A stretch of 64,000 nucleotides of DNA from a virus. Of this stretch, positions 16,616 through 34,086 are shown piece after piece. The position numbers were made by a program, and so were the translations under genes. The stretch lies in IMG/VR virus record IMGVR_UViG_3300028792_000004, positions 3,385 through 67,384 of that record; one strand, written 5' to 3'. Positions within the stretch are counted from its first letter, which is position 1. The number at the start of each line of letters is the position of its first letter. Below the pieces are notes generated by a model, which was not told the DNA's origin, searched no databases, and saw only the letters and a program-made list of their open reading frames with translations.

Positions 16616-17620
16616 ATGCAGCACGCGTACGGCGGCGGCAGCGTTGGCGAGGGTCATCGCTACGAGGACGTCTCGAAGACAGTGACCCAGCAGCCCCGCC
16701 CGCAGCTGGAGCGCCAGATCTCCGCGGGCCAGCGCGCGCGGCGTGAGGCCAGCAGCCCCACCAACCAGGTCGCCGCAGGCGGGCTGGCCGCGACCGGGCT
16801 CGGTGCCGGGGTCAGCAGCGGCGCCAGCCGGCGGCTCAAGCGCCTCGACGTCAGGGTCGAGCGGACCCACGCCAGCGCGGCCGAGGCGGCCGATCGGGTC
16901 AAGGAGGCCAACGCGAACGCCCATGTCGCCTTCGGCCATCACGCGGCCGCTGCCCGGGCCCACGCCGACGTGAAGTCCCGGCAGGCCGCACTCGCGGCCT
17001 GGGAGAAGGCCGGCGGGGTCGGCATGCACCGCGACCGGATCAAGTACGCCACCGGCCGGACGGCGCCGTTCACGGTGAAGGCCAAGGGCAGCTCCAGCCA
17101 CGTCACCTACGGCAACCGGCTGACCGCCGAGGCCCACGAGACTGCGGCCCAGGTCAAGGCCCACGCCGCCACGGTCCGCGCCGAGCAGGCCCGCGCCGAG
17201 CAGGCCGGCCGCGAGCACGCGAAGTTCACCCTGGCCCATCACAAGGGGCTGGCCCTGCGGGAGTTCGCGACCCCGAAGCTCAAGGCCCGCCGGGGCGCCG
17301 GCCGGGCGCTGATGCTCGGCGGCGGCCTCGCGGCCGCCGGTGCGGTGGTCCAGGGTGAGCGCAAGCGCCAGGTGGGCAAGTCCGCCTCCCAGCTGGCACG
17401 ACGGGTGGCCCCACTGCGGCGCAGCCCCGAGGCCGTCCGGGCTGCCCTGAGCGGACCTCGCAGCACCGAGCTGGCCGCCCGGATCTCCCGCGCGCGCGCC
17501 GCAGCGCCGGCGCGCGACCCCGAGGCCGTCCGCGCCGCCCTGAGTGCTCCGCGCAACACCCTGAAGACGATCCGGGTGAAGCGAGCCGTGGCAGACCGCC
17601 GCTTCTCCATGGGCCTGTGA
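16616..17620 (+). CDS. basic Ala/Arg-rich head-region protein with glycine-zipper modules
   Basis: SD GAGGAG; GxxxG helices; VSK/T and VGK/S motifs. Confidence 0.6.
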   Translation: MQHAYGGGSVGEGHRYEDVSKTVTQQPRPQLERQISAGQRARREASSPTNQVAAGGLAATGLGAGVSSGASRRLKRLDVRVERTHASAAEAADRVKEANANAHVAFGHHAAAARAHADVKSRQAALAAWEKAGGVGMHRDRIKYATGRTAPFTVKAKGSSSHVTYGNRLTAEAHETAAQVKAHAATVRAEQARAEQAGREHAKFTLAHHKGLALREFATPKLKARRGAGRALMLGGGLAAAGAVVQGERKRQVGKSASQLARRVAPLRRSPEAVRAALSGPRSTELAARISRARAAAPARDPEAVRAALSAPRNTLKTIRVKRAVADRRFSMGL

Positions 17621-17643
17621 GCCCGACGATGAGAAGGTGAGCC

Positions 17644-19215
17644 GTGACTGTTACCCCCTCACAGCGACTAGACAACAGCCCCGCAGGAGCCTCTGGCGCT
17701 GACACCTCCCCGGAGGACATGGCGCTGATGGCCGAGGCCGGCCAGGTCCCGGTCTTCCACGAGATCGGCACCACCGGGCTCAAGCGCTCCGCGGGCTACC
17801 TCGACGAGGAGTTCCTGCCCCAGCTGCGCGGTCGCAAGGCGGTCGGGGTCTTCCGGGAGATGAACGACAACGACCCGATCATCGGCTCGCTGATGTTCGC
17901 GATCACCCGGCTCCTGGGCGACGTCAACTGGCGGGTGGAGCCCGCCGGCAAGGGCAAGGACGCGGCCGAGGCAGCCAAGCTCGTCGAGACCTGCATGGAC
18001 GACATGAACGTCCCCTGGGCGGAGTTCATCATGGAGGCCGCCACCCACCTGGTCTACGGGTGGGCCTGGCACGAGGTCGTCTACAAGCGCCGGACCGGGC
18101 CGTGGGAGCGCAACCCGCGGCTGCGCTCGAAGTACAGCGACGGCAAGATCGGCTGGCGCAAGATGCCGATCCGCTCCCAGGAGACGCTGCTGCGCTGGCT
18201 CTTCGACGATGAGGGCGACACCATCGGGATGGTCCAGATGGCCCCACCCCGGTACGAGACCAACGTGATCCCGCTGAACCGCTCGCTGCTGTTCCGCAAC
18301 GGCGTCTACAAGGGCTCCCCCGAGGGCCGCTCGATGCTGCGCAACGCCTACCGGCCGTGGTTCATGAAGAAGCGCCTCGAGGAGATCGAGGCGGTCGGCA
18401 TCGAGCGCGACCTCGCGGGCCTGCCGATGGTGAAGGTCCCCGCGGAGATGCTGCGCGCCAAGGCCGGCTCGGAGCAGCACAAGCAGGTCGAGGCATTCAA
18501 GAAGATGGTGAAGTCGGTCCGGCGCAACGAGCAGGAGGGGATGGTCTTCCCCGCGGCCTACGACCAGGACACCAAGCAGAAGCTCTACGACTTCGAGCTG
18601 CTCGGTGGCGGCGGCGCCCGGGCCTTCAACATCGACGGCACGATCAAGCGCTACGAGGAGCGGATGCTCGGCACGGTGCTGGCCGACTTCATCCTGCTCG
18701 GCCACCAGCAGACCGGCTCCTACTCGATGCACCTGGACAAGACCGCGATGTTCCGGGCCTCGCTGAACTCGGTGGCCAAGTCGATGGCCGAGGTGATGAA
18801 CCGGCACGCGATCCCGCGGCTGTTCATGGCCAACGGCTGGAAGCCGGCCGAGCTGCCCAAGATCGTGCCCAGCGACGTCGACGCTCCCGACATCGCCCAG
18901 CTCGGTGCGTTCATGACCTCGATGGCCGGCCTCGGCGTGCAGTGGTTCCCGGACCCGACGATGGAGCAGTTCGTGCGCCAGACCGCGCGGCTGCCCGAGC
19001 TCACCGACGACGCCGAGGAGCGTCGTCGGATGATGCAGATGCGCTCGGAGGCCACCGCGTTCAGCCAGGCCAATAGCGCCTACCTGCAGGCGCGCACCCA
19101 GGAGGCGATGGGTGGGATGGATCCGGCCGCGGCCGCTGGCGGCGCAGCCGGTGGTGCAGCTGGCGGTGGCGCGGCTCCTGCCGGCGCAGCGCCGGGGGCG
19201 GGGGCGAAGTCGTGA
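17644..19215 (+). CDS. portal protein
   Basis: Follows TerL; DEEFLPQLRG...EM.DND...GRSMLRNAYRPW..KK...GIERDLAGLP motifs of Mu gp29/DUF935-like portals. Confidence 0.9.
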   Translation: MTVTPSQRLDNSPAGASGADTSPEDMALMAEAGQVPVFHEIGTTGLKRSAGYLDEEFLPQLRGRKAVGVFREMNDNDPIIGSLMFAITRLLGDVNWRVEPAGKGKDAAEAAKLVETCMDDMNVPWAEFIMEAATHLVYGWAWHEVVYKRRTGPWERNPRLRSKYSDGKIGWRKMPIRSQETLLRWLFDDEGDTIGMVQMAPPRYETNVIPLNRSLLFRNGVYKGSPEGRSMLRNAYRPWFMKKRLEEIEAVGIERDLAGLPMVKVPAEMLRAKAGSEQHKQVEAFKKMVKSVRRNEQEGMVFPAAYDQDTKQKLYDFELLGGGGARAFNIDGTIKRYEERMLGTVLADFILLGHQQTGSYSMHLDKTAMFRASLNSVAKSMAEVMNRHAIPRLFMANGWKPAELPKIVPSDVDAPDIAQLGAFMTSMAGLGVQWFPDPTMEQFVRQTARLPELTDDAEERRRMMQMRSEATAFSQANSAYLQARTQEAMGGMDPAAAAGGAAGGAAGGGAAPAGAAPGAGAKS

Positions 19216-20543
19216 GTGAGCAGAGCCGGCGCACCCAGCACGCGACCAACGCGGCCGCCGGCCTGGGGCTGATCGCCGCCGGCGAGGGCATGGGGCACTT
19301 CGCCTCGGCCCGCGCCAGTCGCGCGGGACGGGTCAGCTCGATGATCCTGCCGCGCGGGGTGAAGGCGGTTGGGGTCCCGCTGGCGGCCACCGGCGTGGTC
19401 GGTGCTGCCCGCAACCGCGGCCGCGCCGATCGTGTCGACCTCACCAAGCTGCCCAAGCAGGTCGCGCACGGCACCGTCAAGATTCCCCGGGCGCGCCGCA
19501 AGGCCGCCACCCAGACCGCGGCCGACACCGGCGCCGCCGTCCTGGGCGGCACCGCCACCGGCTACCTGCTGCGTCGCGCCGGGCGTACGCCGGCGGGTCG
19601 CGTCGCGCTGGGCACTGTCGGCTCGGTCGGTGGCGCATCGAGCGCGCTCTACGGCCGGCAGAAGGGTCGTGAGTCCGGCCGTCGCCGTGCTCGGCTGGCC
19701 AAGGCCGAGCCCCAGCAGCACCAGCGGACCTTCCGGCTGCCGGTCCCCACCGTGGCCGACACCCACGAGGACTGGAAGTTGCACCGCCAGCGCCGCAGGA
19801 CGGCGAACACCTCGATCGCCGCGGCCGGGGTCGGCGCGGCGGCGCTAGCCGCCCGCGCCCCGCACCTGGTCAAGCCCAAGAAGCCCTCCCAGCGGCTGCT
19901 CAAGCTGCGCTCGCGCGGGAACAAGCTCTCCGAGGGGCTCGGTGCCGGTGCGGTGCTGGCTGGCCTCTACAGCGCCGGCACGGGCTACAGCACGAACCGC
20001 CACGACCTCGACGTCCAGGCTCGGCGGCTGCGCGAGCGGGACGCGCTCCTGCACCGCCGGAGCCCGGTGAACAAGGACGCCTTCACCCGCAAGTATGGCA
20101 ACCGGATCTCCCCGCAGGCCGAGTCCGGGTACGAGTACCTGCGCCAGGGCCGCAACCGGCAGGCGCGCAGCGCGGCGCTGAACACCGGACTGACGGCGGT
20201 CAACGCCACCGCGGCGCTGCGCGGCGGCAAGGTCATGCGTCCGGTCGGCCTCGGCCTGGGCGCGATCACCGGCACCCAGGCCGTGCGCCAGTACCGCGGC
20301 GCGAAGCGCTGGGAGGGCCACATGAAGAAGATCCGGGCCAAGGCCTACGAGCGCGCCGGCCAGGGCGTCTACGGCCGCGACCGGGAGATCGCCAAGGACG
20401 ACCTGTCCAAGGCCCTACTGCGAGTCCGCCCACCTGGGCTACCGTTCCCGAAGGGGCTCCGCCGGGCCCCCGCCATGCGCGCCGGCAGCGTACGGCGGAC
20501 CGCGAGCGGCAAGATGGTCGCCTTCCGCGGCTCCTACGGATGA
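19212..20543 (+). CDS. basic modular head-region protein (glycine zippers separated by LAK/VNK/IAK/LSK sites)
   Basis: GTGA overlap with portal; composition and repeated motifs. Confidence 0.65.
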   Translation: MSEQSRRTQHATNAAAGLGLIAAGEGMGHFASARASRAGRVSSMILPRGVKAVGVPLAATGVVGAARNRGRADRVDLTKLPKQVAHGTVKIPRARRKAATQTAADTGAAVLGGTATGYLLRRAGRTPAGRVALGTVGSVGGASSALYGRQKGRESGRRRARLAKAEPQQHQRTFRLPVPTVADTHEDWKLHRQRRRTANTSIAAAGVGAAALAARAPHLVKPKKPSQRLLKLRSRGNKLSEGLGAGAVLAGLYSAGTGYSTNRHDLDVQARRLRERDALLHRRSPVNKDAFTRKYGNRISPQAESGYEYLRQGRNRQARSAALNTGLTAVNATAALRGGKVMRPVGLGLGAITGTQAVRQYRGAKRWEGHMKKIRAKAYERAGQGVYGRDREIAKDDLSKALLRVRPPGLPFPKGLRRAPAMRAGSVRRTASGKMVAFRGSYG

Positions 20544-20547
20544 GGAG

Positions 20548-23500
20548 ATGCCCGTGTCGAAGGTGCTGAGTGTGCTGGCCAAGGCGGTGCAGCAGGACGA
20601 GGAGTCCGCTGCCGAGCTGATGGACCAGATCGCGATGGAGGTCATCGCCGACGAGATCGACGCCCATGGCGGCGACATCGAGCTGCTGGCCCGCCCACAG
20701 CTGGCCGAGCTGGTCGCCAAGGCCAAGCGCGGCCTGCTGCGCGGCTACGTCGCCAAGGCTGTCGCGGGCACCTACCCCGACGAGTCATACGCCCGCGTCG
20801 CGGCGCAGCTGAACATGCTCACCGAGGTGATCAAGGACGATGAGCCGTTCGACCCGAAGAAGCACCCCCGCGGCCAGGGTGGCCGGTTCACCCGTTCGAT
20901 CAGCCACGCTCCGGTCTCCAGCCTCTCCCACATCAGGGACTACCGGCAGCTCTCCCCGGCCAACCGGAGCCTGCGCGCCGCCGGCAAGGACCCCGACACG
21001 GACCCGGCCCGGGACAAGTTCCTGGCCGAGCAGGGGGAGTGGGAGGACGCCCAGCGGAAGATGAAGGAGTTCCAGGACACCTTCCCCGGCTCCACTAGGA
21101 ACGTCGACGCCGTCTTCTCCTTCCGGACCAAGGACGGCTCGAGCGAGAAGTTCTCCGTCCCGCTGGGCAAGCCGCTGGACGCCAACATCGCCGCAGCGGC
21201 CGGGTACGGCCTCGACGACCGGCTGGACTTCGTGGAGATCCAGCCCGGCCCCGGCGCCAACGAGGCCCTGAAGGACAAGGTCGCGCGCTTCAACGACATC
21301 GCCGGCCAGACCGGCTCGCCGCGCACTGCCCGGCTGATGACCAGCTACGACCCGGAGAAGCTGCGCTACCTCGGCGGGGTCTTCGGCGACGACATCAACG
21401 GCGAGGCCGTCCAGCGCCCCGGCATCAAGCGGTTCTTCAGCCGGACCCAGGCGGCCGGCAACGTGCTCGAGGGGATCACCGGCGCGGAGAAGTACGGCAA
21501 GATGGTGCGCCTGGCCGGTGAGTTCGGCTCCGAGGCCGACCGGGCGCTGGGCCCCGCGGCCCAGCGCGCCGCCTACCGCTACCGCGGCACCGAGAAGGAG
21601 GCCGACCCGACCTTGCGCCGGGCCTTCACCAGCCGCGACATGCAGCTGGTCGACGCGGTGGGCGAGGCCAACAGCGGGGACGACCTGGCGCGGGTCGACC
21701 AGATCCGCGAGGGGATCAAGCAGCAGAAGCGCGAGCGGGGCGGCACCAGCCCGGTGCTCGGCGCCCTGGAGCACCGGCTCACCGAGTCGGCCAACTCCCC
21801 CGAGCCGATGCTCGGTGACGAGCTGGCGATGAAGGTCCGCTCCGACGTCGCCGCGGCGCACATGATGTCCACGCTGCCCGACGACCCGCGCGCGGCCGAG
21901 CTCTCCCGGCTCTCGGGTCACGTGCTGCCCTCCCAGGGCGTGATCATCGACCACGATGGCGACGTGGTCTCCCAGGCGGTCGGCTACGGCGAGGACCACT
22001 ACTTGCCCTTCGACCTGAAGAACATCCGCGCGCTCAAGGGCGGCCAGTACGTGCGTACCCGGATGGAGGGCGGCCCCACCGGCGAGGACGTCTACGCCCT
22101 GGTCGCCACCGGCGCCCGGATGGGCACCGTGGTGTCCTCGAGCGGGGTCTTCACCTTCGAGATGGACCCGAACTTCCGCGGCCGCCGCGGCTCCAGCGAC
22201 AAGGCCCGGATGGTCTACCAGCGCTACCTGGAGATCCTCGACGCCGTGGACGGCTCCGGGCTCTACTCCCGCGACCTCTCCGCTGCCGACAAGGCCCGCG
22301 TGGAGGAGACCGCGAGCGCGATGAACTACGAGATCGGCGGCACTGAGCACCAGGCGATGCTGAACGCCGAGCGGGCCAAGCAGAAGAAGCTCACCCCCGA
22401 CCAGGTAGAGGCCATCGAGGCCGAGGCACGCCAGGAGCTGCAGGCCAGCGGCCGGCGCTTCACCGAGCTTTCCACCGCGCGGCAGAACGCCGAGGTCACC
22501 TCGCTGACCGAGGAGCGTGTGCTGGAGCGCAAGGGCGAGCTGATCCGCGAGGTCTCGCTCAACGCCGAGGGCTACGCGCTGGCCATGAAGACGCTGCAGC
22601 AGCAGTTCCCCTACTTCATCCGCACCGCGACCTACGAGCCGCTGCGCAACAAGGAGACTGGCGGCGGCTTCTTCGCTGCCCGGGGTATGGACGCGGGCCA
22701 GGCCGTGCGCCAGCGCTCGCTGTCCGACGACCGCGGCTACGTCCGTCCAGGTGGGCTGCGCTCGGAGGGCACCAAGGAGGGCTTCTACGCCACCGCCGGC
22801 GCGCGCAGGCTCAAGCGGACCAAGCGGGACGAGCCCGAAGAGTCTCCCAAGGCGATCCCGGCCGCAGCCGGGACCGCCGCTGTGACAACTCCTGGCGCTG
22901 CTGCCCCCGCCGCGGCGCCCAGCCAGGCCACGGCCGTTCCCAGTGGGAAGCTCGCTGAGGCGCTGGCGCCGCGCTCGACCGAGTTCACCAACAGGCGCGA
23001 TGTGGCGGTCAAGGAACTCCACCAGGCGTGGGCCGTGCTCAGCCAGTCCAACCAGGGTCAGCTCGGTGGCCAGGGACTGGAGAACCTCGGCGGCGCGCAG
23101 GTCCCGTGGGACCAGGTCAAGGGTCGTCGCGACCTCGCGGCCGCCTGGCTGATGGACGCGGTGCCGGCACAGTTCAACGAGGTGATGTCCACCGACCAGG
23201 CCAGCGCGCTCGACGTGCTCTCGGACCGGGACCTGATCGCCTCTACTGTGCGCGGCAAGCTCTCGGCCGGTGCGGCTGGCTGGGGCGACCCCCAGGCGAT
23301 CGAGGCGCTGCAGCTGCCCGGGGTCAAGGACTCCGACTCCTTCGCCAGGTACGTGGCCGACACCGCCCAGCGGGTGGTGGACTACCAGCAGCTGGCCAAC
23401 CCGGCCTTCTTCCGCACCACCGAGGGCGTCTGGGAGACCAGCGGGCCGCGCGAGCAGCCCGACCTGGCCACGATCACCACCCAGGAGGGGCTGGACGCCT

Positions 23501-24941: not shown

Positions 24942-27222
24942 GCGCTGGTGGACCGACATCGAGAAGGCCCAGCAGGTCCTCTCGATCGTCGGAGGCGACG
25001 ACGTGGCGCAGAGCGTCGGCACGGTGGCGCTGGGCTACCACGCCGTGCTGGCGAGCTCGCTGCGCCCGCTGTGCGCCCGCACGCTGATCGACCATGCGGA
25101 CGTGACCAACGCGCTCGAGGACGTCGACCTGTTCCCGGTGATGAAGGCGATGACCGCCGCCGTCTCCCCGGTGCTCGGCGACGCCGCCGGGGTCTACGCC
25201 GCCGACCTGGTGGGCCAGCTGCACCAGGAGGCCGAGGAGGGGATCCTCCACGAGCTGCGGATCCTCGTCTCCAAGGGCGTGGCGTGGCCTCAGGCGATCG
25301 AGCGCGTCTGTGGCGTCGCCGGCGTCCCGGCTCGCGCGGTCAACGGCTACGTGCAGAAGATGGCCCAGCCACAGGTGAACCCCCTGGTGCTGGCCGACGA
25401 GGGCGACCGCACGCTGATGACCTGGGCCTCCCGGCTGGGCGCGCGCGAGGCCACCTCACCACTGGAGGGTGTGGCCAAGGTCGAGAGCTTCGACGAACGC
25501 GAGCACCCACGGTCCGGGGAGACCGGCCGCTTCGTGGAGGCTCCTGACGACGGGGCCACCGCCGGCGGCGAGCGGCAGGCGCGGCTGTCCCGGCTGTCCC
25601 GCCTCTCCCGGCTCAGCAACCTCCAGGCTCGGTCCCGTGCCGAGGCGAGTGAGCGCGTCGCAGCGGAGGAGAAGCGCCAGGGCGAGAAGAAGTCCCTGGC
25701 CGAGCTCCAGGCCGAGGTGCTCGGTCGCCGCGGGGCGCAGGGCCGCGCGCCCCGCACGCGCGGCGCGCAGGGCCGTGAAGCGCAGGGTCGCGAAGCGCAG
25801 GTGCGGGCCCCGCGCATCCAGGAGGCCCCCAGGACACGCGAGCTGGCGCGGGTTGAGGAGGCGCCGGCGCCGATCGCGGCGCAGCGTGAGTCCTTCGGCC
25901 ACCGGCTGCACGAGCAGGTCTCGGTCGACATGAACCCCGGCGCCATCGCACTCACGCACATCGGCGCGATCCTCTCCGGCAACGAGATCGGCCGGCTGGG
26001 AGACGTCACCACGAAGCCGGGCGAGCAGGTCATCGGCCAAGCGAGACTGCTGATCGACCAGGCCTACGTCAGCCACGACAACGGCGACGGCACCTACGAG
26101 CTCGACGAGAACTACGACTACCGGATCACCGGCGCCGAGCTCAGCGGCCTCGACCTCGTACTGCGGCTGGCGCCGATCGAGGACGGCGGCGTCGGCAAGG
26201 CGGACTTCGACGAGCGCGAGCACCCGCGTGACGAGGATGGCCGCTTCTCCGAGACCGAGTCCAGGCGTCAGCGCCTCTCCCGCCTCTCCCGACTCCAGGG
26301 GCTGGCCAACCGGCAGGCCCGGCAGGCGGCGGCGAGTGCCGCCGAGACCAAGGCTCGCGAGGCTGCTCGGGACGAGGCGAGTGCCACCGAAGCGGTGCTC
26401 GCGCGGATGCAGCCCGCGCAGGGTCGAGAGGCCAAGACGCGCGGGGCCCAGACCAGGAGCGCCCGACTCGTGCCCACCCGGGCGCGCAGCGCCCGGAGGG
26501 CTGCGGAGGAAACCAGGCAGGAAGCGCAGCCCCAGGTCGACCACCTCAGCGCCGAGCGGCCGGCACTGCTGCTCGACGAGTCCACTTTCGCCCAGCTCAC
26601 CAACGCCTATGTCGACGACGAGGCGTTCAAGGAGCCCACGAACCTCAGCGCGGTGACCGGCAGGTCACCGAGCGAGATCAAGTCGCTGATGAAGTCCACC
26701 CAGATGGTGCAAGGGGACCAGGTCAGTGATCGCCTCGCTGCGCACGCGTGGCAGTCGATCTTCCAGCAGCATCGTGGCCGGCAGATGATCGAGGTCGCCG
26801 AGGCGCACCACGTCTTCACCACGGCCGGTGAGGCGCGTGACGCCGCGATCCAGCTGCTCGGTGCGGAGAAGCGGCTCGACGAGGACGGCCTCGAGGCCTA
26901 CGTCCCCGGGGTCGAGGCGATCGCGCACCGCGGCGGCGGCCCGGCCGTCTACCGCCCGGTCGTCTACCGGCAGCCCCTGGAGGGCAGCAGCGATCTGCAC
27001 GACGCTCCGTTGCACGTGATGACCGGCGACGCAGGCGCGATGATGCGCCTGCGCAACGGCGACACCGAGGGGCTGGTGATCCAGCGCGTCGGCGAGGGCG
27101 CCGGCGCGCAGGAGCTGGAGCGGATGGGCGGCGGCACTCACCTGGGCTTCGCCGATGTGCACCTGAACACCAACGTCTTCGAGGTCATAGACACGCGCCA
27201 ACCGCGGGAACGTCGGCCATGA
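24928..27222 (+). CDS. putative internal head protein with two HPR..GRF / RLSRL / AQGR modules
   Basis: TTG start with GGAAG SD; internal duplication visible in the translation. Confidence 0.7.
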   Translation: MQTGERWWTDIEKAQQVLSIVGGDDVAQSVGTVALGYHAVLASSLRPLCARTLIDHADVTNALEDVDLFPVMKAMTAAVSPVLGDAAGVYAADLVGQLHQEAEEGILHELRILVSKGVAWPQAIERVCGVAGVPARAVNGYVQKMAQPQVNPLVLADEGDRTLMTWASRLGAREATSPLEGVAKVESFDEREHPRSGETGRFVEAPDDGATAGGERQARLSRLSRLSRLSNLQARSRAEASERVAAEEKRQGEKKSLAELQAEVLGRRGAQGRAPRTRGAQGREAQGREAQVRAPRIQEAPRTRELARVEEAPAPIAAQRESFGHRLHEQVSVDMNPGAIALTHIGAILSGNEIGRLGDVTTKPGEQVIGQARLLIDQAYVSHDNGDGTYELDENYDYRITGAELSGLDLVLRLAPIEDGGVGKADFDEREHPRDEDGRFSETESRRQRLSRLSRLQGLANRQARQAAASAAETKAREAARDEASATEAVLARMQPAQGREAKTRGAQTRSARLVPTRARSARRAAEETRQEAQPQVDHLSAERPALLLDESTFAQLTNAYVDDEAFKEPTNLSAVTGRSPSEIKSLMKSTQMVQGDQVSDRLAAHAWQSIFQQHRGRQMIEVAEAHHVFTTAGEARDAAIQLLGAEKRLDEDGLEAYVPGVEAIAHRGGGPAVYRPVVYRQPLEGSSDLHDAPLHVMTGDAGAMMRLRNGDTEGLVIQRVGEGAGAQELERMGGGTHLGFADVHLNTNVFEVIDTRQPRERRP

Positions 27223-27243: not shown

Positions 27244-27969
27244 ATGCGTGATGCGAGGACCGTGGTGAGCAAGCTGCACGAGGTCGACCCTGGCTTCCGG
27301 GAGCTCTGCGACACCCTCTTCGGCGGTGCCGTCGACGTGGACCGCGTCTACGAGGCTGCCTACACCCGCGACGGGGTCTCGAAGATGTTCCCCGACGCCG
27401 CCGACCTGCACGCGCCCGGCACTGGCGGGCTGCGCGCCACCGGACGCCGCCGGCGCAAGCCGAAGGCGGCAGTCCACAAGGGCGAGGAGCGGGTGGGCGA
27501 GGAGGAGATCCTCGACGCCGGTGAGGTGCTGGACGAGATCGAGAAGGGCGCCGGCGTCGACGTCATCTTCCACACCGAGTTCGCCAAGATGGACACCGAC
27601 AAGCGCGAGGTCTTCGGCTGGGCCAGTGTCGTGGAGCTCAACGGCCAGCCGGTCGAGGACCGCCAGGGCGACATCATCACCCCCGAGGAGCTCGAGCGCG
27701 CGGCGTACTCCTACGTGCAGAAGTCCCGCGTCGGCGGCCGCCAGCACCAGCGCGAGGGCGACAGCCCCTTCCACGCCTCCGACATGATCGAGTCCCTGGT
27801 GCTGACCAAGGAGAAGGTCGAGAAGATGGGGCTCCCCGCGAGCACCCCGCTCGGCTGGTGGGTCGGCTACAAGGTGCACGACGACGACACCTGGTCGGCC
27901 ATCAAGAAGGGCGACCTCACCGGCTTCTCGATCCACGGCCGCGGCCGCCGGGTCCCGATCGAGGCCTGA
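27244..27969 (+). CDS. XkdF-type (S78-like) prohead serine protease domain
   Basis: KREVFGWA...D.QGD....ELERAAY...QH...MIES...GWWVG.KV.D...W..IKKG.LTGFSIHG; SD GAGGAGG. Confidence 0.8.
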   Translation: MRDARTVVSKLHEVDPGFRELCDTLFGGAVDVDRVYEAAYTRDGVSKMFPDAADLHAPGTGGLRATGRRRRKPKAAVHKGEERVGEEEILDAGEVLDEIEKGAGVDVIFHTEFAKMDTDKREVFGWASVVELNGQPVEDRQGDIITPEELERAAYSYVQKSRVGGRQHQREGDSPFHASDMIESLVLTKEKVEKMGLPASTPLGWWVGYKVHDDDTWSAIKKGDLTGFSIHGRGRRVPIEA

Positions 27970-29177
27970 TGGGCGCGCTCGTTCAGACTGATGACCGCCG
28001 CAAGCGCGCGGTCACGGCAGGCCTGAGTGGTGTCGGTGCTGCAGCTGGTGCGGGCGGGCTCGCACTCGCCGGCTCCAAGTTCGGTGCCGCGGCGCGCAAG
28101 GCGCCCAAGGGGATGCGCCTGAAGGCGGCGTACCGCTCGGAGAAGGGCGCCGCGCTGCTGCTCCCGCTGGAGGCCGCAGGGCTCGCTGGTGAGTTCTCCG
28201 CGACCAAGATCCTGCACTCCGACGCCAAGAAGAACCGCCCGGTGGTCCAGCTCAACAAGGCCACCTCGCTGCGCCCGAACTACTACTTCAACCCGGCGAC
28301 CGCCGAGCGGCAGGAGGGCAAGCGTCAGCGTCTCGCGACCGAGGCCCAGCACCAGGGCGCTCGAGCGACGGCACTGGGCTTCACCGCCGCCGGCGGGTCG
28401 GCGCTCGGCGCCCGGGCCACCACCAGCCGTCTGGCCCCGGCTGCGGCCGCGTCTGCGCACCGCGGCGCGATCGCCCGCGGCGTACCCCGCGAGCACGCTG
28501 ACCTGGCGCATGCGAAGTTCCACCAGGTCCGCACCTGGGCCAAGCCCCGCCGTGGACGACTGCTGGCTGGCGCGACGGCCGCTGCCGGTGCCACGGCTGC
28601 CGCTGGGGCGGTGGCGCGCTGGAAGCGCGACGAGACCACCGGCATCAGCCAGGACCTTGGCCGCTCCGCATCCGGCGCGCGCTACAGCCGCTACAAGGAC
28701 CAGGTGGGCAAGGCGCTGCCGCTCGCACTCGCGGCAGAGGGCATCACCCTTGGGGTGAAGGCCAGCCAGCGGATGACCCCGGCCCACGTCCGGCAGATCA
28801 AGCGGGTCGGCGCCGGCGTGGCCGGCGGCGCCCTGGTCGCCACCGGCGCCTACAGCACCGGCCGGGTCCGGGAGACCAAGCGCAACCGCCGGCTGGTCCG
28901 CGCTGCGCAGACGACGTCGAAGCAGCGCGGGCTCCGAGACGTCACCAAGGCCGAGGCCCACCTCGAGGACGTCGCCAAGAGCTCCTACCGGCGCCGTACG
29001 GTGCCTGACCCCGGTTCCGAGCTCGACGTCATCGCCGCAGCTGCGCTGCTGCTCGACTCCGAGCACGAGAAGAGCTGGCTGCCCTGGCGCCGGCGCAAGC
29101 AGATCCACGAGCAGCTGCAGGCGGCCATCGCGCGTGGCTACCTCAACGCTCCGTACACCGTGGGAGGTCCTCGATGA
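27969..29177 (+). CDS. basic modular head-region protein with glycine zippers
   Basis: TGATG coupling; LNK/A, VGK/A, VTK/A and VAK/S motifs. Confidence 0.65.
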   Translation: MGALVQTDDRRKRAVTAGLSGVGAAAGAGGLALAGSKFGAAARKAPKGMRLKAAYRSEKGAALLLPLEAAGLAGEFSATKILHSDAKKNRPVVQLNKATSLRPNYYFNPATAERQEGKRQRLATEAQHQGARATALGFTAAGGSALGARATTSRLAPAAAASAHRGAIARGVPREHADLAHAKFHQVRTWAKPRRGRLLAGATAAAGATAAAGAVARWKRDETTGISQDLGRSASGARYSRYKDQVGKALPLALAAEGITLGVKASQRMTPAHVRQIKRVGAGVAGGALVATGAYSTGRVRETKRNRRLVRAAQTTSKQRGLRDVTKAEAHLEDVAKSSYRRRTVPDPGSELDVIAAAALLLDSEHEKSWLPWRRRKQIHEQLQAAIARGYLNAPYTVGGPR

Positions 29178-29890
29178 CCGAGTTGGTGGAGTACCGCAAG
29201 GCACTGAGCACCAAGGCCCAAGTCGGGCTCGGAGTCGCTGGCGGGACTGCCGGCGTGGCAGCGCTCGCGGCATCTCCAGCCGGCCGTAAGCGCCGCAAGC
29301 TGGAGCAGTTCAGGGCGGAGTACCGCCGCTCGAGCCCGGAGCAGCAGGCGTTGACTCGGCAGCGGTTCACGGAGGCCTACTCGCGCAACCGGGCCCAGAC
29401 TCTGATGAGTCAGGCCATCCAGAAAGGAAGCACCATGTCGATCGAGTCCACCACGGACGTCTACGAGTCTGAGGGCCACGGCGACGGCCGCGGGCACAGC
29501 ATGCAGTCGGTCGAGAAGGCGATGATCCCCACGCCGCAGGGCGTGCTCGGCACGTACCTGGTGCCCGAGGAGATCTCCAAGCGCGCGCGCCGCTACGACC
29601 CAGAAGCCGACCGGCAGCGCCGGATGGGCCTCTACGCCGGCGCGGGCCTGGGCGGCGGTGCGGTGCTCGCCCGGGAGTCTGCCGACCGGCTCTCCAACTC
29701 GGTCGACCGGGAGCGGCGCACTGTCACGGTCCCCAAGATCAAGCTCAAGGGGCTGAAGGGCGCGGAGCTGAAGGCGGCCAAGCGCGGCCGCTCAGGGCTC
29801 GGCCTGGCGGCCCTGGCTGCCCTCTCCAGCGGCGGTGGGGTCGCGGCCTACCGGCACGGCATCTCGCGCCGGAACCAGCCCTACAACTGA
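29174..29890 (+). CDS. basic modular head-region protein with glycine zippers
   Basis: SD GGAGG; YRK/A, IQK/G, VEK/A and ISK/R motifs. Confidence 0.65.
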   Translation: MTELVEYRKALSTKAQVGLGVAGGTAGVAALAASPAGRKRRKLEQFRAEYRRSSPEQQALTRQRFTEAYSRNRAQTLMSQAIQKGSTMSIESTTDVYESEGHGDGRGHSMQSVEKAMIPTPQGVLGTYLVPEEISKRARRYDPEADRQRRMGLYAGAGLGGGAVLARESADRLSNSVDRERRTVTVPKIKLKGLKGAELKAAKRGRSGLGLAALAALSSGGGVAAYRHGISRRNQPYN

Positions 29891-29956: not shown

Positions 29957-31036
29957 ATGACCAGACGGACCATGCTCAGTGACTTGGAGATCGACGAGGT
30001 CTCCACTGTCGATCGACCCGCGAACCAGCACGGACTGATCACCTTCTCGAAGCGTTACGGCAGCATCGAGAAGAGCACCCATACCGAGGAGGACCTCATG
30101 TCGGCCGGAACAGCAGAGATCGAGGTGTTCGACGACGAGGGCACCCCAGTGGACCCCGACTCGCTCGAGCACGGTGCCCTGGTCTACGACGTCGATGGCA
30201 ACGAGTACGCCTACGTCGAGGACGAGGAGGACGACGACCAGGTCGGCAAGTCCCTCTTCTCCGACCCGGAGGGTGCGCTCAACGCGGCCCGGAAGGTCAC
30301 CCGCAACGGCCGCGCAGCTGCGGCGCGCGGTGCGGCCAACCGCAAGGCCGCGGGCGCAGTCGACAACGCCGCCCGCCGGGGCCGCGGAGCCAAGGACTAC
30401 ATGTACTCCTCGGGCGGCACGACCCGGGGCGCTGACGGCGTCTTCACCGCGGGCAACCGCGGTCTGACCCGCAACGGCCGCGTCGTCCTGACCACCGCCG
30501 GAGGTGCTGGTGCCGCCGGCGCCGCCGCTGGCTACGAGACGGCCAAGAAGTCGCTGGGTGACCACGTCCTCGAGGAACTCTCCAAGGCCGTGACCGAGGA
30601 CGACCGCGCCGACATCATCGCCAAGGCGCTCGACCAGGTCGAGATCGCCAAGTCCGAAGCCGCCCAGGTCCGCAAGGAGCTCGACGACGAGAGGGACCTG
30701 CGCCTGGAGACCGAGTTCATCTCCAAGGCCGACGAGTACAACCTCCCCGTCGACCCCTCCGAGTTCGGCCCGGTGCTCAAGCGCCTGGTCGAGCGGATGG
30801 ACGAGGACGACCTGGAGATCCTGGACCAGGTCTTCAAGTCGGCCGGCGACCTGCTCTACCAGGAGTACGGCCACGTCGGTGGCGGCTCCAACAGCTCGAT
30901 CATCGACAGCGTGGACGCGCTGGCCGGTGAGATGGTCACCAAGGCCGGAGGTGGCTTCACCACCGCCGAGGCCCAGGTGGCGCTGTTCGAGGCCAACCCC
31001 GAGGCGTACGACGCCTACATCCAGGAAGGACGCTGA
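29957..31036 (+). CDS. scaffolding protein with an N-terminal protease-like strand (LEIDEVSTVDRPAN)
   Basis: Upstream of decoration and capsid genes; acidic helical C-terminus ending PEAYDAYIQEGR; many hydrophobic-x-K/[AS] motifs. Confidence 0.7.
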   Translation: MTRRTMLSDLEIDEVSTVDRPANQHGLITFSKRYGSIEKSTHTEEDLMSAGTAEIEVFDDEGTPVDPDSLEHGALVYDVDGNEYAYVEDEEDDDQVGKSLFSDPEGALNAARKVTRNGRAAAARGAANRKAAGAVDNAARRGRGAKDYMYSSGGTTRGADGVFTAGNRGLTRNGRVVLTTAGGAGAAGAAAGYETAKKSLGDHVLEELSKAVTEDDRADIIAKALDQVEIAKSEAAQVRKELDDERDLRLETEFISKADEYNLPVDPSEFGPVLKRLVERMDEDDLEILDQVFKSAGDLLYQEYGHVGGGSNSSIIDSVDALAGEMVTKAGGGFTTAEAQVALFEANPEAYDAYIQEGR

Positions 31037-31039
31037 CCC

Positions 31040-31459
31040 ATGGCGTACGAGGAGACTCTCAGGAACATCAGCCTCGACGCTGACGCGTCGCTGGCTGCGC
31101 AGACGGGCATCTCGGGCACGCCCGGTGCGGCCAGTCCGCACTACGGCCCGGCCCTGTTCCGCTTCGTCAAGGTCACCGGAGCGCACGCCTGTGGCCGCGC
31201 TGCGGCCCAGACGGACGACGTGATCGGGGTGTGCCAGAACAAGCCCCAGGTCGTCGGAGGCGCCACGACCGTGGCGATCGCCGGTGTGACGATGCTCATG
31301 GCGGGTGCGGCAGTCGCCGCGACCGACAAGATCTCGTCGGACAACCAGGGCCGCGGGGTCCCGCTCGGTGGAGCGGGTGCCGGTGCGGTCCAGTTCGGGG
31401 TTGCGGTCGATGCCGCGGCTGCTGCCGGACACCTCTTCCCGATGCTGATCAAGGTCTGA
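31040..31459 (+). CDS. capsid decoration / cement protein (DUF2190-like)
   Basis: FRFVK...IGV.QNKP...TVAIAG...AG.AVAA.D.I.SD.QGR; lies between scaffold and capsid. Confidence 0.75.
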   Translation: MAYEETLRNISLDADASLAAQTGISGTPGAASPHYGPALFRFVKVTGAHACGRAAAQTDDVIGVCQNKPQVVGGATTVAIAGVTMLMAGAAVAATDKISSDNQGRGVPLGGAGAGAVQFGVAVDAAAAAGHLFPMLIKV

Positions 31460-31474
31460 AGGAGATCCTGAGCC

Positions 31475-32467
31475 ATGCCGCTTCCCACACAGAGTGACCT
31501 CCACGTCAACGTCCCGCTGACGAACGTCTCGGTCGCCTACATGCAGAAGGCCGGCGACTACATCGCCAGCAAGGTCTTCCCCAAGGTGCCCGTCACCAAG
31601 CAGTCGGACCTCTACTGGAAGTACTCCAAGTCCGACTGGCGTCGGACCGAGGTCAAGCGCCGTGCGCCTGCCACGGAGTCGCCCGGGGTCGGCTGGAGCC
31701 AGACGACCGACAACTACTACTGCCACCCGTACGCGGTCCACAAGGACATCGACGACCAGGTGCGCGCGAACTCGGACTCGAACTTCAAGCTCGACAAGGA
31801 GTCCACCGAGTTCATCACCAACCAGCTCCTGCTCAAGCGGGACCTGGACTGGAACGCCACCTACTTCAAGTCCGGCGTCTGGGACGTCGACCTGGTCGGT
31901 GGCACGGACTTCACGAAGTTCGACGACGCGGCCTCGGACCCGATCAGCTTCATGGCGCAACGGATCATCCAGTTCCGCAAGCGCAACGGCTTCAAGCCGA
32001 ACAAGCTGGTCCTGGGTGCCAACGTGATGGTGGGGCTGAAGAACCACCCCGACATCATCGACCGGATCAAGTACACCCAGCGGGGCATCGTCACCGAGGA
32101 CCTGATCGCGACCCTCTTCGACATCGACGACATCTACACGTCGTATGCCACGCTGTCGGACGGCCCGCAGATCCCGGACGCGCAGCTGCAGGACGCAGCT
32201 GCGACGTACGACTTCATCACGGACCCGAACGGCATGCTGATGCTGTACGCGCCCGCGAGCCCGTCGCTGCAGACCCCGAGCGCCGGCTACACCTTCACCT
32301 GGGACGGCTACGTCAACTCCGGCGGCAACGGCATCCGCATCAAGCGGTTCCGCCAGGAGCAGATCGAGTCCGACCGCGTGGAGGGGTCGATGACCTACGA
32401 CATGAAGGTCGTCAGCCCGGACTGCGGCGAGTACTTCAGCGACGTCGTCGCCGCCATCGCGGACTGA
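31475..32467 (+). CDS. major capsid protein (lambda gpE-like)
   Basis: PLTNVSVAY.Q...YIA.KVFP.VPV.KQSD.Y.KY.K N-terminus; 330 aa; SD AAGGAG. Confidence 0.9.
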   Translation: MPLPTQSDLHVNVPLTNVSVAYMQKAGDYIASKVFPKVPVTKQSDLYWKYSKSDWRRTEVKRRAPATESPGVGWSQTTDNYYCHPYAVHKDIDDQVRANSDSNFKLDKESTEFITNQLLLKRDLDWNATYFKSGVWDVDLVGGTDFTKFDDAASDPISFMAQRIIQFRKRNGFKPNKLVLGANVMVGLKNHPDIIDRIKYTQRGIVTEDLIATLFDIDDIYTSYATLSDGPQIPDAQLQDAAATYDFITDPNGMLMLYAPASPSLQTPSAGYTFTWDGYVNSGGNGIRIKRFRQEQIESDRVEGSMTYDMKVVSPDCGEYFSDVVAAIAD

Positions 32468-32473
32468 TCCGCG

Positions 32474-32719: not shown

Positions 32720-33039
32720 GCACGAAGCCTCGCGCCCCTCGCGGCCCTCGCGCTCCGGTGACTCGGGAGACCCCCGAGCTGCCGGAGGGCGAGGCGTCTG
32801 CGCCCACCCTGGTGGTCGAGGAGCACGGCGACATCGAGGTCTCGGACGGCGCCTCTGCGCCGGCCGGGGGCGTCCCGGCGGTCTCCCTGGATGAGCCCTA
32901 CGACGGCCGCTGGATGGTGTGCCGCAAGCCGTTCAAGCTCAACGGGAAGAAGTACGTCGCCGGTGACGAGGTCCCAGTCGACTTGATCCCGCGACCCGAG
33001 TCGTGGGTCAGGACAGGGTTCCTGCGGGAAGCATCATGA
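32716..33039 (+). CDS. small head-associated protein
   Basis: ATGA coupling; C-terminal VCRKPF...Y..GDEVP...WVRTGFL. Confidence 0.6.
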   Translation: MSTKPRAPRGPRAPVTRETPELPEGEASAPTLVVEEHGDIEVSDGASAPAGGVPAVSLDEPYDGRWMVCRKPFKLNGKKYVAGDEVPVDLIPRPESWVRTGFLREAS

Positions 33040-33761
33040 CCGGCCGCCTTGTGCCGGTCATCAAGGCGTCGAAGCAGGACGGGAACTACGTCAAGGCCGG
33101 CGAGAACGACCGCTGGATCCGCTCCCGCGGCGAGCGTCACGCCACCCTGCGTGGCATGGCCCCGGGCATCGGCATGAGTGTCGGCGGCTTGGTCGCCTAC
33201 TCCGGTGGCGTCGCCACGGGGAACAGGAAGCTCAGCCGCACTGGCATCGGGACGCTGGCCGCCGGCACCGTCGCAGAACACGTGGGTGGCCACCGCGCTG
33301 CCAACAAGTGGCGGCGCAAGCAGGGCATCGGTGAGCGCAACTACTGGTCCGGCAAGGCCCGCGAGGTGGGCAAGGCCTCTCCCTCCAGGACCCGCAAGCG
33401 TCGCCAGGAGCGCCGTGAGGGCTCTGCGAAGCCCACGGCGGGCCCGGACCCCCAGCTGCTCGCCGGACAGGCTCAGCGCGACCTGCGCGCCCTCGAGGCG
33501 GCCGAGGCCGGGCACGACCACCCCGCGTTCAAGCGGCCCAAGACCCCGGTGACCGCCATTCCGCCTCCCGCAGCGGTCAACCATGCGACCACGCCGGCGT
33601 CAGCCGCGCGCGGTCTGGCCTCGCGCCGGTTGAAGGTCGGCGGTGGCGTCGCTGCCGGCGTCGGTGCTGCCACGGCCGGCGGCGTGCTGCTCGACCGCAA
33701 GCTCAAGCAGCGCAAGCGCGCGCTCCAGGGCGTCACCGGCAAGGCCCGCAACCAGCGATAG
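33036..33761 (+). CDS. basic modular head-region protein with glycine zippers
   Basis: VIK/A and VGK/A motifs; GVAAGVGAATAGG helix followed by a basic tail. Confidence 0.65.
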   Translation: MTGRLVPVIKASKQDGNYVKAGENDRWIRSRGERHATLRGMAPGIGMSVGGLVAYSGGVATGNRKLSRTGIGTLAAGTVAEHVGGHRAANKWRRKQGIGERNYWSGKAREVGKASPSRTRKRRQERREGSAKPTAGPDPQLLAGQAQRDLRALEAAEAGHDHPAFKRPKTPVTAIPPPAAVNHATTPASAARGLASRRLKVGGGVAAGVGAATAGGVLLDRKLKQRKRALQGVTGKARNQR

Positions 33762-33771
33762 GAGGCAGGCC

Positions 33772-34086
33772 ATGAGCCACCAGACCTACCTCATCGCCAA
33801 GGCGCAGCGCGGGCTCGAGGGCTTCGCCAAGTCCCTCATGCCCGGCGGAGTGCCCAAGCGCGCTGTCGAGCTCAGCGCCCAGGAGCGCCGGGGGATGCGG
33901 ATGCGCCTCGAGCGCCAGGCCCGGGTGCGCGAAGGCACCCTGCCGGGGCTGGGGCGCACTTCGGGGGTCGGCACCGCCCGGGGTTCGCGCACGCCGTACT
34001 TCGCCGAGCAGAACCGTAAGGTGGTCCGGCGTGAGAAGCGGATCGCTGAGGGCGAGAAGGTCTCACCAGTGCGGAGGCGACCATGA
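33772..34086 (+). CDS. small basic head-region protein
   Basis: SD GGAGG; IAK/A and FAK/S motifs. Confidence 0.6.
   Translation: MSHQTYLIAKAQRGLEGFAKSLMPGGVPKRAVELSAQERRGMRMRLERQARVREGTLPGLGRTSGVGTARGSRTPYFAEQNRKVVRREKRIAEGEKVSPVRRRP

Follow-up and report, generated by a model that had tools for sequence, protein, structure and literature searches.

Why do so many genes of a single phage head module repeat the same short lysine motif? The question is raised by a 64,000-nucleotide stretch of viral DNA (hereafter the window; positions 3,385 to 67,384 of IMG/VR record IMGVR_UViG_3300028792_000004), which belongs to an uncultured phage of 67.5 kb with a long non-contractile tail, as indicated by its major tail and tape-measure genes. 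Hints of the host come from two MAG bins only, Microlunatus and an acidobacterium. A first-pass annotation had singled out ten ORFs, starting at positions 16616, 19212, 20548, 24928, 27244, 27969, 29174, 29957, 33036 and 33772, in which a hydrophobic residue, any residue and a lysine are followed mostly by Ala or Ser, and had proposed that they encode capsid-internal cargo cut at these sites by a prohead protease into dozens of cationic peptides. All the site strings and Gly-rich strings that it quoted were found in the ORFs to which they had been assigned.

Distribution of the motif in the window and among relatives

Compared with within-protein shuffles, the motif [VILF]-x-K-[AS] is present 29 times in the ten ORFs for 7.9 expected (z 7.7), and the anticipated excess over tail and early proteins holds after correction for composition, since both of these stay at expectation (7 versus 6.8 and 2 versus 2.9, respectively). 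Head-core proteins (2 versus 3.3 expected) and minus-strand genes (5 versus 4.7) gave similar values. In the same ten ORFs the control versions of the motif are flat, both with arginine ([VILF]xR[AS], 13 versus 17.8 expected) and with glutamate ([VILF]xE[AS], 14 versus 11.3). It could be argued that composition, or the periodicity of helices in proteins rich in Ala and Lys, is enough to produce the excess, as the ORFs are Ala- and Gly-rich and the scaffold is helical; this explanation was tested and rejected, and we consider it extremely improbable in view of the z-score against shuffles, the flat Arg and Glu versions, the absence of enrichment in P22 and lambda, whose scaffolds are helical too, and the observation that, in the scaffold orthologues, a hydrophobic-x-K is found nearby for 69% of the motif lysines versus 10% of other lysines.

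Four ORFs are significant singly, namely 29957 (8 versus 0.62), 24928 (4 versus 0.62), 27969 (4 versus 1.09) and 33772 (2 versus 0.15); for the remaining six (16616, 19212, 20548, 27244, 29174 and 33036) the excess has no individual significance. The ten ORFs had been picked by the earlier reader for their motif content, a selection bias that is limited by scanning the whole window with a site position matrix trained exclusively on scaffold orthologues from other contigs. Across the nine ORFs other than the scaffold, this matrix recovered 12 sites where 1.5 were expected (z 8.5); the window's remaining 54 ORFs gave 4, with an expectation of 3.5. The motif excess outlasts the removal of the scaffold ORF 29957, its strongest carrier, and the repeated hydrophobic-x-Lys-Ala/Ser motif is real. 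Among relatives, where site positions are retained at 30-55% identity, the enrichment is 3.1-fold (z 41.6) on the upstream side of the capsid gene and 1.1-fold on its downstream side.

Throughout the lineage the portal gene is followed by one for a basic protein and then by those for the large proteins, the protease, further basic proteins, the scaffold and the capsid, in this order. In the window, where all features described here lie on the plus strand, the portal gene (17644..19215) is of the Mu / P23-45 type (Pfam PF06074, 3.8e-26; phrog_113, 7.6e-77) and carries the motif at chance level (1 versus 0.86). An AAA+ ATPase gene (24093..24941; Pfam PF00004, 3.1e-15, and AAA_lid_6; motif 0 versus 0.35) is located within the head module and occupies the equivalent place in nine related loci. 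The decoration-like or auxiliary head protein (31040..31459; phrog_673, 3.1e-13) has no motif copy, nor does the major capsid protein (31475..32467; phrog_1005, 5.1e-84; 0 versus 0.67 expected), which is found in 80 IMG/VR loci at 58-71% identity.

The protease and the scaffold

ORF 27244 (27244..27969) is, judging from its match to Pfam PF14550 (Peptidase_S78_2; E 9e-21, 74.6 bits for a cut-off of 24, residues 112-236) and, tentatively, from a fold match to T4 gp21, an XkdF-type prohead serine protease. The AlphaFold2 (AF2) model, with a pLDDT of only 62, predicts a helical N-domain (residues 1-40), a disordered linker (42-109) that includes K47, K79 and K101, and a protease domain (108-232), so that the motif in the linker directly precedes the protease domain. 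With VIA-align the best match of this low-confidence model was T4 gp21 (5jbl_A; Z 7.0, rmsd 3.3, 107 aligned), a value within the range of chance matches that stands 2 Z units over the next row; the varicella-zoster virus (VZV) protease reached Z 4.2, and a Foldseek search of the model against the PDB gave no match. Across 32 sequences the candidate catalytic residues H168, S184, H231 and S229 do not vary, the sites K47, K101 and K115 are retained in 77-100% of 33 orthologues, and the motif is 3.1-fold enriched in the protease ORF of relatives.

The scaffold protein (29957..31036; 359 aa, net charge -32) carries eight strict motif copies for 0.62 expected and eleven hydrophobic-x-K sites in all, and its gene lies immediately upstream of the decoration-like and capsid genes. 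It begins with an E-V-S-x-V-D-R-P-A-N strand, and only its C-terminal part is matched by phrog_13547. Residues 99-210 form an internal basic Gly/Ala insert bordered by VGK/S and LSK/A. The lysines K32, K210, K223, K257 and K329 are retained in 98-100% of 63 orthologues, in which the motif is enriched 12.8-fold (453 versus 35 expected).

Several motif copies in the scaffold and none in the capsid protein is also the pattern of phage HK97, in which the proven cut lies at K103/S104 (PMC10275583). In the record's sequence this position reads F-N-K/S, which is a form of the motif described here, and the HK97 scaffold domain has four motif copies while the mature capsid protein has none. The two systems are alike in the form of the site cut in the gp5 delta domain by gp4 (MEROPS S78). 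They differ in that scaffold and capsid protein are one chain in HK97 and the products of separate genes here, and in that the phage described here has an XkdF-type protease (PF14550) together with nine further site-bearing ORFs; HK97 is not known to have any other head-internal substrates.

Cultured phages with XkdF-type proteases were compared as well, the set comprising Lactococcus ul36 (ORF34), Bacillus vB_BtS_B83 (gp09), Pseudomonas KPP23 (ORF084/085), Roseobacter RDJL Phi 1 (gp71/72) and Arthrobacter Mufasa8 (gp4/5). As in the window, these combine the protease family with a V-S-x-V-D-x-x-A-N strand that has a hydrophobic-x-K-[SA] site after it; their scaffold part shows a 6- to 10-fold motif excess (ul36, 10 versus 1.5; B83, 13 versus 1.5; Mufasa8, 8 versus 0.8; KPP23, 10 versus 1.6; RDJL Phi 1, 9 versus 1.25). 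In ul36 and B83 strand, protease and scaffold form one chain, whereas in the window the strand stands at the start of the scaffold ORF, and the protease gene is separated from the scaffold gene by two basic ones. Related scaffolds of Kharcho (9 versus 1.0), LiSara (8 versus 1.2) and ValentiniPuff (9 versus 1.1) are similarly enriched, although the protease was located in none of these phages. No scaffold enrichment was seen for lambda C/Nu3, served by an S49 protease, or for P22 gp8, which has no protease; the protease-scaffold protein of the archaeal virus HSTV-1 is not enriched either (2 versus 0.6), yet its protease is of the XkdF type.

Because the site positions are retained, the HK97 cut F-N-K/S matches, and the scaffolds of XkdF-type phages are enriched while those of lambda and P22 are not, the motif most likely serves as recognition site for the phage's own XkdF-type protease, ORF 27244. 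That it is a prohead-protease site had been suggested in the first-pass annotation, and this suggestion fits the HK97 cut, the scaffold enrichment, the predicted linkers and the ends of the 1172-aa protein described below. The enzyme would cut after the lysine of hydrophobic-x-Lys-Ala/Ser, as the HK97 protease does at F-N-K/S; a limited literature search found no published statement of XkdF-type protease specificity, and cuts after Lys would be masked in trypsin-based data. Once the procapsid is assembled, the acidic scaffold, with its eight to eleven sites, would be cut into short pieces, and the protease would release its own catalytic domain at the linker site ahead of it. A motif that is common to proteins expected inside the shell, abundant in the scaffold and less frequent in the putative cargo, could also be a binding or loading signal, similar to encapsulin cargo peptides, which tethers both to the inner face of the capsid and is not cut. 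This we regard as very unlikely, considering that the motif is a proven cleavage site in HK97, that it is found immediately ahead of the protease domain and on linker boundaries, not at free termini, and that it is not enriched in scaffolds of phages lacking an S78-type protease (lambda, P22).

Candidate substrates beyond the scaffold

Two of the site-bearing ORFs encode large acidic proteins. The 1172-aa protein (20548..24066) has the sites K12, K58, K70 and K96 in a putative N-terminal helical propeptide and K1133 near the C-terminus; K12, K70 and K96 are retained in 65-83% of orthologues of about 30% identity (K96 in 65%). In its AF2 model (pLDDT 75.5) helices are found within residues 3-96, K96 ends the helix 79-96 and is followed by a low-confidence linker (97-104), and K1133 lies just ahead of a low-confidence stretch (1136-1144), so that predicted structure and conservation both point to a terminal propeptide ending in a protease site. 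A structure search returned no match in the PDB and, in BFVD, only the protein's own uncultured-phage orthologue and weak unnamed rows; more than 200 homologues exist, none of them named, on contigs of 60-75 kb. The 764-aa protein (24928..27222; motif 4 versus 0.62, p 0.003) has VAK/V at 184 and VGK/A at 424, each immediately ahead of an F-D-E-R-E-H-P-R...G-R-F motif and retained in 55-64% of 11 orthologues; it has no match among cultured phages. Both are folded proteins that seem trimmed at their termini; neither is the string of cationic modules that had been supposed.

A Mu-type portal gene is usually followed by that of the MuF / SPP1 gp7 minor head protein. Its profile (PF04233 or a related PHROG) was sought in ORFs 19212 and 20548, and neither shows any Pfam match even at E 5 or any PHROG match.

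The other candidates are strongly basic. Between terminase and portal, ORF 16616 (16616..17620; 334 aa, net +35) has no family in Pfam or PHROG and one strict site, VGK/S at 255, which the close relative L098 has at 256 even though the two proteins are just 37% identical. The 443-aa product of ORF 19212 (19212..20543; net +63, eight uncharged runs) has LAK/A at 164 and LSK/A at 400, both retained in L098, besides VNK/D at 288 and IAK/D at 395; relatives likewise encode a basic protein (net +42 to +93) after the portal, and tblastn gave no match in 50,697 cultured phage records. Downstream of the protease, ORF 27969 (27969..29177; 402 aa, net +41; motif 4 versus 1.09, p 0.019) contains LNK/A 97, VGK/A 248, VTK/A 327 and VAK/S 337, the last retained in L098; its own model has a pLDDT of 0.49, and it falls exclusively in viral hypothetical clusters of the ESM Atlas. 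ORF 29174 (29174..29890; 238 aa, net +19) has VEK/A at 115 and ISK/R at 136, the latter scoring 11.9 on the scaffold-trained matrix; its orthologues lie downstream of the protease in relatives, and no match was found among cultured phages. After the capsid gene, ORF 33036 (33036..33761; 241 aa, net +32) has VIK/A at 10 and VGK/A at 113, and relatives encode basic proteins of net +28 to +32 at its position. Next to it is the small ORF 33772 (33772..34086; 104 aa, net +16; motif 2 versus 0.15, p 0.007), in which the N-terminal IAK/A 10 and FAK/S 20 both pass the matrix.

Five of these basic proteins (ORFs 16616, 19212, 27969, 29174 and 33036) contain 22 uncharged Gly/Ala runs of at least 15 residues for 4.9 expected (z 8.8). 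The runs span 15-27 residues, with flank charges averaging +2.3 and +2.9 per 10 residues. Modules made of a basic stretch and a GxxxG helix had been described for these genes; the uncharged runs with charged flanks bear out the general layout, whereas strict GxxxG is not above composition (27 versus 21.8, z 1.2), and it is a looser small-xxx-small-xxx-small zipper that is enriched (z 4.3). Such runs with basic flanks look like membrane segments, and some such genes are labelled 'membrane protein' in cultured actinophage records, as would be expected if the products acted in the membrane of the infected cell (exclusion, lysis timing or envelope remodelling) and their sites were incidental. We find this improbable: the hydrophobicity of the runs (mean Kyte-Doolittle 1.0-1.66) is low, at or below the usual range of membrane helices, the enrichment is Lys-specific over Arg, and the same module is inserted within the scaffold of close relatives and fused to the N-terminus of a 1150-aa protein in distant ones.

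It may be asked instead whether only the scaffold and the protease bear the motif as a genuine protease site, the extra proteins being transient aids to assembly, an inner core that is broken down and expelled, or lying outside the procapsid, and their few matches being weakly selected or partly due to chance. The bulk of the signal is indeed in the scaffold and protease ORFs, six ORFs are not significant singly, and the motif is enriched overall just 1.2-fold in orthologues of the 1172-aa protein. Nevertheless, the scaffold-trained matrix finds its 12 sites versus 1.5 in non-scaffold ORFs; in basic proteins with Gly/Ala runs from relatives (83 proteins), where the plain motif is enriched 1.6-fold and the Arg control stands at 0.93, the matrix is enriched 4.3-fold (z 13.5); these fast-evolving proteins keep their sites at 37-55% identity; and K96 of the 1172-aa protein sits at a helix-linker boundary and is widely retained. 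We therefore hold this explanation to be rather unlikely.

Processing in the head and known counterparts

Since about 12 kb of extra head genes bear the same site, their products probably enter the procapsid during assembly and are processed inside it. Terminal propeptides would be lost from the two large acidic proteins, and the strongly basic ones, six in number and with Gly/Ala runs in five, would yield cationic pieces kept with the DNA. Strict sites in the ten ORFs predict about 35 pieces, of which some 15-20 are cationic (40-255 residues), a figure that falls short of the dozens of cationic peptides first envisaged. The idea of ten cationic cargo genes is similarly narrowed to the six strongly basic ORFs; among the other four are the scaffold and the protease, unrecognised as such by the earlier reader, which carry much of the signal. 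The scaffold itself, with its site-bounded basic Gly/Ala insert, speaks for a connection of the basic modules with the inside of the procapsid, as does the gene order common to the lineage. Taken as a whole, an account in which an XkdF-type protease, cutting after Lys, chops the scaffold and processes extra cargo in the head appears to us somewhat probable. For the cationic pieces, DNA charge neutralisation is the simplest reading, and membrane insertion during ejection is possible. More tentatively, and with considerable doubt, this widespread, uncultured lineage of soil phages may devote about 18% of its genome to capsid cargo, including a new, fast-evolving class of polycationic Gly/Ala-run proteins that would be cut in the head by an HK97-type protease and would afterwards condense DNA or enter membranes as ejection proteins. 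If true, this would be the counterpart, in a long-tailed phage, of the internal proteins of T4 and T7 or of adenovirus core proteins; the extra cargo genes were found in none of the cultured phages searched.

In phiKZ and SPN3US many head and ejection proteins are reported to be processed at one motif (PMC5694885, PMC10052503), S/A/G-x-E or A-x-E. Both are jumbo myophages that cut after Glu, at sites mapped experimentally. In contrast, the phage analysed here is of 67.5 kb with a long non-contractile tail, and its sites are predicted. In T4, one short code of the gp21 protease, I/L-x-E, is common to the scaffold gp22, the small core proteins gp67 and gp68, and the injected internal proteins IPI-III and Alt, whose N-terminal, capsid-targeting propeptides are removed. 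The T4 gene order, as generally known, of portal, core proteins, protease, scaffold and capsid resembles that of the head module studied here, although T4 differs in protease family, in a P1 Glu and in its contractile tail, shows no sequence similarity, and has internal proteins that are small and free of Gly/Ala runs.

The head module and its lysine-centred motif

The window derives from a 67.5 kb IMG/VR virus record with a G+C content of about 70%, and its head module extends over 15059-34086 on the + strand. Encoded there, all on the + strand, are the large terminase (15059; phrog_2), a Mu / P23-45 type portal (PF06074) at 17644, an AAA+ ATPase that includes AAA_lid_6 (24093-24941) and, at 27244-27969, a prohead protease of the XkdF type (PF14550, E 9e-21); next come the genes for a scaffold-like protein at 29957, for a decoration-like one (phrog_673) at 31040 and, at 31475, for the major capsid protein (phrog_1005, E 5e-84). 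Since a major tail protein and a tape measure of 1728 residues are found 3' of the head module, the phage belongs to the long-tailed type. Two tail-region ORFs, at 43676-48622 (1648 aa) and 48619-50880 (753 aa), gave no PHROG match. Nine ORFs of the head module, among which the AAA+ ATPase alone has a known family, amount to 3980 residues and so to 17.7% of the genome. Concerning the host, a scan of genome collections retrieved two MAG bins only, one of them Microlunatus, and a megablast of the whole region against cultured phages returned as its sole match 86 bases of the portal gene (18337-18422), with 93% DNA identity to the Arthrobacter phages Kharcho and Ottawa; the Microlunatus bin, this portal match and the G+C content weakly point to Actinomycetota.

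The first-pass annotation had ascribed a recurrent hydrophobic-x-Lys site to ten ORFs of this region, named by their start positions (16616, 19212, 20548, 24928, 27244, 27969, 29174, 29957, 33036 and 33772), and every site and Gly-rich string that it quoted was found in the window ORFs. In its strict form, [VILF]-x-K-[AS], with the cut presumed after Lys, the ten ORFs contain 29 copies of the motif vs 7.9 expected from residue shuffles within each protein (z 7.7), whereas head-core proteins (2 vs 3.3), tail proteins (7 vs 6.8), plus-strand early proteins (2 vs 2.9) and minus-strand proteins (5 vs 4.7) are flat. The excess is real and non-random, and it is specific for Lys, patterns with Arg or Glu in its place being flat in the window. 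The signal is uneven among the ORFs: 29957 alone carries 8 motifs vs 0.62 expected, and 24928, 27969 and 33772 are also individually significant, the remaining six not. To counter the bias of reader-chosen ORFs, a position matrix of the site, trained on scaffold orthologues from other contigs, was scanned across every window ORF; it scored 12 sites where 1.5 were expected in the nine listed ORFs besides the scaffold, and 4 vs 3.5 in the 54 remaining ORFs. By computation, the motif is restricted to head-module proteins. Beyond the motif itself, the matrix favours Ser/Ala/Gly at P2 and Leu/Phe/Ala at P2'.

Proposed recognition by HK97 and XkdF-type proteases

The proposal that the motif is a prohead-protease cleavage code gains support from cultured phages. 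The maturation cut of HK97 lies at K103/S104 (PMC10275583). In the HK97 record this bond reads F-N-K|S, a proven cut identical in form to the motif of the window; the scaffold domain of 103 residues contains I-Q-K-A, L-T-K-S, L-I-K-S and F-N-K-S, and the mature capsid protein contains zero motifs. An excess is also seen in scaffolds adjoining XkdF-type proteases, namely Lactococcus ul36 ORF34 (10 vs 1.5 expected), Bacillus B83 gp09 (13 vs 1.5), Arthrobacter Mufasa8 gp5 (8 vs 0.8), Pseudomonas KPP23 ORF085 (10 vs 1.6) and Roseobacter RDJL Phi 1 gp72 (9 vs 1.25), as well as in the related scaffolds Arthrobacter Kharcho gp98 (9 vs 1.0), LiSara gp23 (8 vs 1.2) and Microbacterium ValentiniPuff gp54 (9 vs 1.1), in none of which was a protease located. 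The negative controls are flat, both lambda C/Nu3, with an S49 protease (0 vs 0.35), and P22 gp8, with no protease (1 vs 0.77); the archaeal virus HSTV-1 (2 vs 0.6) is an exception among XkdF carriers. The motif is associated with S78/XkdF-type proteases, and on these sequence comparisons the reading that head proteases of the HK97/XkdF type recognise it is well supported.

Processing of scaffold and internal proteins by a head protease is already known in kind; a Lys-specific consensus for the prohead protease, XkdF or PF14550 was not found stated in the limited library consulted, and may nevertheless be published. If the reading is true, the four residues hydrophobic-x-Lys|Ala/Ser would predict substrates of HK97- and XkdF-type proteases from sequence alone, making it possible to annotate scaffold and cargo genes in thousands of phage genomes, including cultured ones; such cuts would have been missed because trypsin-based virion proteomics is blind to cuts after Lys.

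For the window protease (ORF 27244), the model comes closest in structure to the protease gp21 of T4 (Z 7.0, rmsd 3.3, 107 aligned), a suggestive, not strong, resemblance in fold, and Foldseek gave no match for the model. At the head of the scaffold ORF (29957-30055) lies an E-V-S-x-V-D-R-P-A-N strand followed by F-S-K, whereas in ul36 ORF34 and B83 gp09 the protease chain carries the equivalent strand (V-S-Y-V-D-K-A-A-N...L-T-K-S) at its own N-terminus. It would seem that the protease-scaffold gene was split and rearranged in the window phage, with two basic genes in between. A complex prediction for the protease domain (100-241) and the scaffold N-terminus (1-60) was too weak to be counted as evidence for this pairing: it scored 0.44, the best of three controls 0.01, with contact agreement of runs of at least 62% and partner pLDDT of at least 40, and in the benchmark, where 58 of 80 solved complexes and 2 of 110 mismatches attained the mark, scores of 0.60 or less came from just 7 of the 80.

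In public records, XkdF-type protease domains are labelled 'DNA methyltransferase' in RDJL Phi 1 gp71 (locus L097, 6947-7345) and in Rhizobium and Lactococcus phage records, and phrog_1530 bears this label as well, probably an annotation error that spread. Moreover, the post-portal proteins LiSara gp17 (locus L001, 12642-14249) and Kharcho gp85 (locus L095, 7100-8755) carry Cys-x-x-Cys ... P-x-H-P-x-C-R-C, a motif of MuF/SPP1 gp7-type minor head proteins, and LiSara gp17 is annotated as a head maturation protease despite it.

Conservation of the sites among relatives

Relatives were collected from IMG/VR through the capsid protein, the best 80 of 142 being kept (58-71% identity); the protease has 11 relatives there, and the 1172-residue product of ORF 20548 has >200 homologues, all unnamed, on contigs of 60-75 kb, a pattern scan of IMG/VR giving no close relative of this protein. 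Across the lineage the genes are conserved in order. After the portal come a very basic protein (net +42 to +93) and one of ~1150 residues, then in some cases the ATPase, followed by a protein of ~800 residues and the protease; between one and three basic proteins precede an acidic scaffold with eight motifs (net -27 to -44), to which succeed the decoration-like and capsid proteins and, further on, another basic protein. Motif enrichment in these relatives is 3.1-fold 5' of the capsid gene (z 41.6) vs 1.1-fold 3' of it, reaching 12.8-fold in 63 scaffolds (453 vs 35 expected) and 3.1-fold in the protease ORF. The 0.51-fold depletion in their core head proteins was set aside as unspecific, since the patterns with Arg and Glu are depleted to an equal degree.

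The sites are also conserved in position. K32, K210, K223, K257 and K329 are retained in 98-100% of scaffold orthologues, and one V-G-K site persists within a stretch of highly variable length. In the protease ORF, a site in the disordered linker, directly N-terminal to strand 1 of the catalytic domain, is conserved in 77% of orthologues. In the 1172-residue protein, K12, K70 and K96 are conserved in 65-83% of orthologues that are ~30% identical, vs 4% for other lysines; in the model, K96 ends a helix (79-96) that is followed by a low-confidence linker, and K1133 is placed alike near the C-terminus. In a close relative (L098), 77% identical in the core of this protein, the sites found in 16616, 19212 and 27969 persist despite just 37-55% identity in the basic proteins.

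Candidate capsid-loaded proteins

Six ORFs (16616, 19212, 27969, 29174, 33036 and 33772) are strongly basic (net +16 to +63). The described succession of basic stretch, Gly-rich run and basic tail stands for five of the six, in which 22 uncharged Gly/Ala-rich runs of 15-27 residues have basic flanks; the runs are marginal in hydrophobicity for membrane helices, and strict GxxxG spacing is not above composition in the basic ORFs. In a non-redundant set of 83 such proteins from relatives, enrichment is 1.6-fold for the motif, 2.3-fold with a small P2 residue and 4.3-fold with the matrix (z 13.5), vs 0.93 for the Arg control. A Gly/Ala module bounded by sites lies within the scaffold in the window and close relatives, and in distant relatives the module is fused to the N-terminus of the ~1150-residue protein, which ties the basic modules to the procapsid interior. 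Four of the candidate cargo ORFs, compared by tblastn with 50,697 phage records, gave no match, and an Atlas feature search for ORF 27969 returned viral hypotheticals only.

The first-pass annotation had taken all ten ORFs for capsid-internal cargo matured into dozens of cationic, membrane-active peptides. Two of the ten are the protease and the scaffold, and strict sites would split the basic ORFs into about 15-20 predicted cationic pieces, each 40-255 residues long. For the basic proteins and for both large ones (ORFs 20548 and 24928) a role as cargo is plausible, the number and function of the products having been overstated. In the mechanism proposed, the extra head-module proteins would be enclosed in the procapsid, the ORF 27244 product would cut hydrophobic-x-Lys|Ala/Ser bonds and the fragments would remain with the DNA; a membrane role of the fragments is speculative. 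To our knowledge, internal head proteins are well documented for myophages and podophages, and hardly at all for long-tailed phages; the reading, if true, would provide a large, unstudied set of candidate capsid-loaded proteins from a phage lineage that is common in soil.

The two large proteins, of 1172 and 764 aa, do not conform to a string of modules: they are acidic and mostly well-folded (pLDDT of at least 70 in 789 of 1172 residues of the AF2 model for ORF 20548), and the concentration of sites at their ends fits propeptide removal instead. No relatives of known function were detectable for either; the model of the 1172-aa protein had no match in PDB and, in BFVD, its own uncultured-phage orthologue and weak unnamed rows only, an Atlas feature search gave nothing for it, and Pfam at E 5 gave nothing for five unexplained ORFs. 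Residues about 320-740 of ORF 20548 (21500-22800) form a confidently modelled and highly conserved core, in which 42 residues are invariant across 28 sequences, as in D-H-Y-L-P-F and Y-R-Y-R-G-T-E; this core, for which PDB gave no match and BFVD its own orthologue only, may represent a fold, enzymatic or structural, that is new. Predicted cut sites are followed by an aromatic-x-x-x-x-H-P-R-x3-4-G-R-F motif once in the 1172-aa protein (20833-20900) and twice in the 764-aa protein (25477-25545 and 26197-26265), with K96 and K184 and K424, respectively, lying a few residues N-terminal to it; orthologues of the former at ~30% identity keep a looser form (an aromatic residue followed by R-D or H-P-R and by G-R/Q-F). 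Between these two genes, and at the same place in nine related loci, lies the AAA+ ATPase (24093-24941), an unusual component of a head module that could serve in cargo loading or unfolding.
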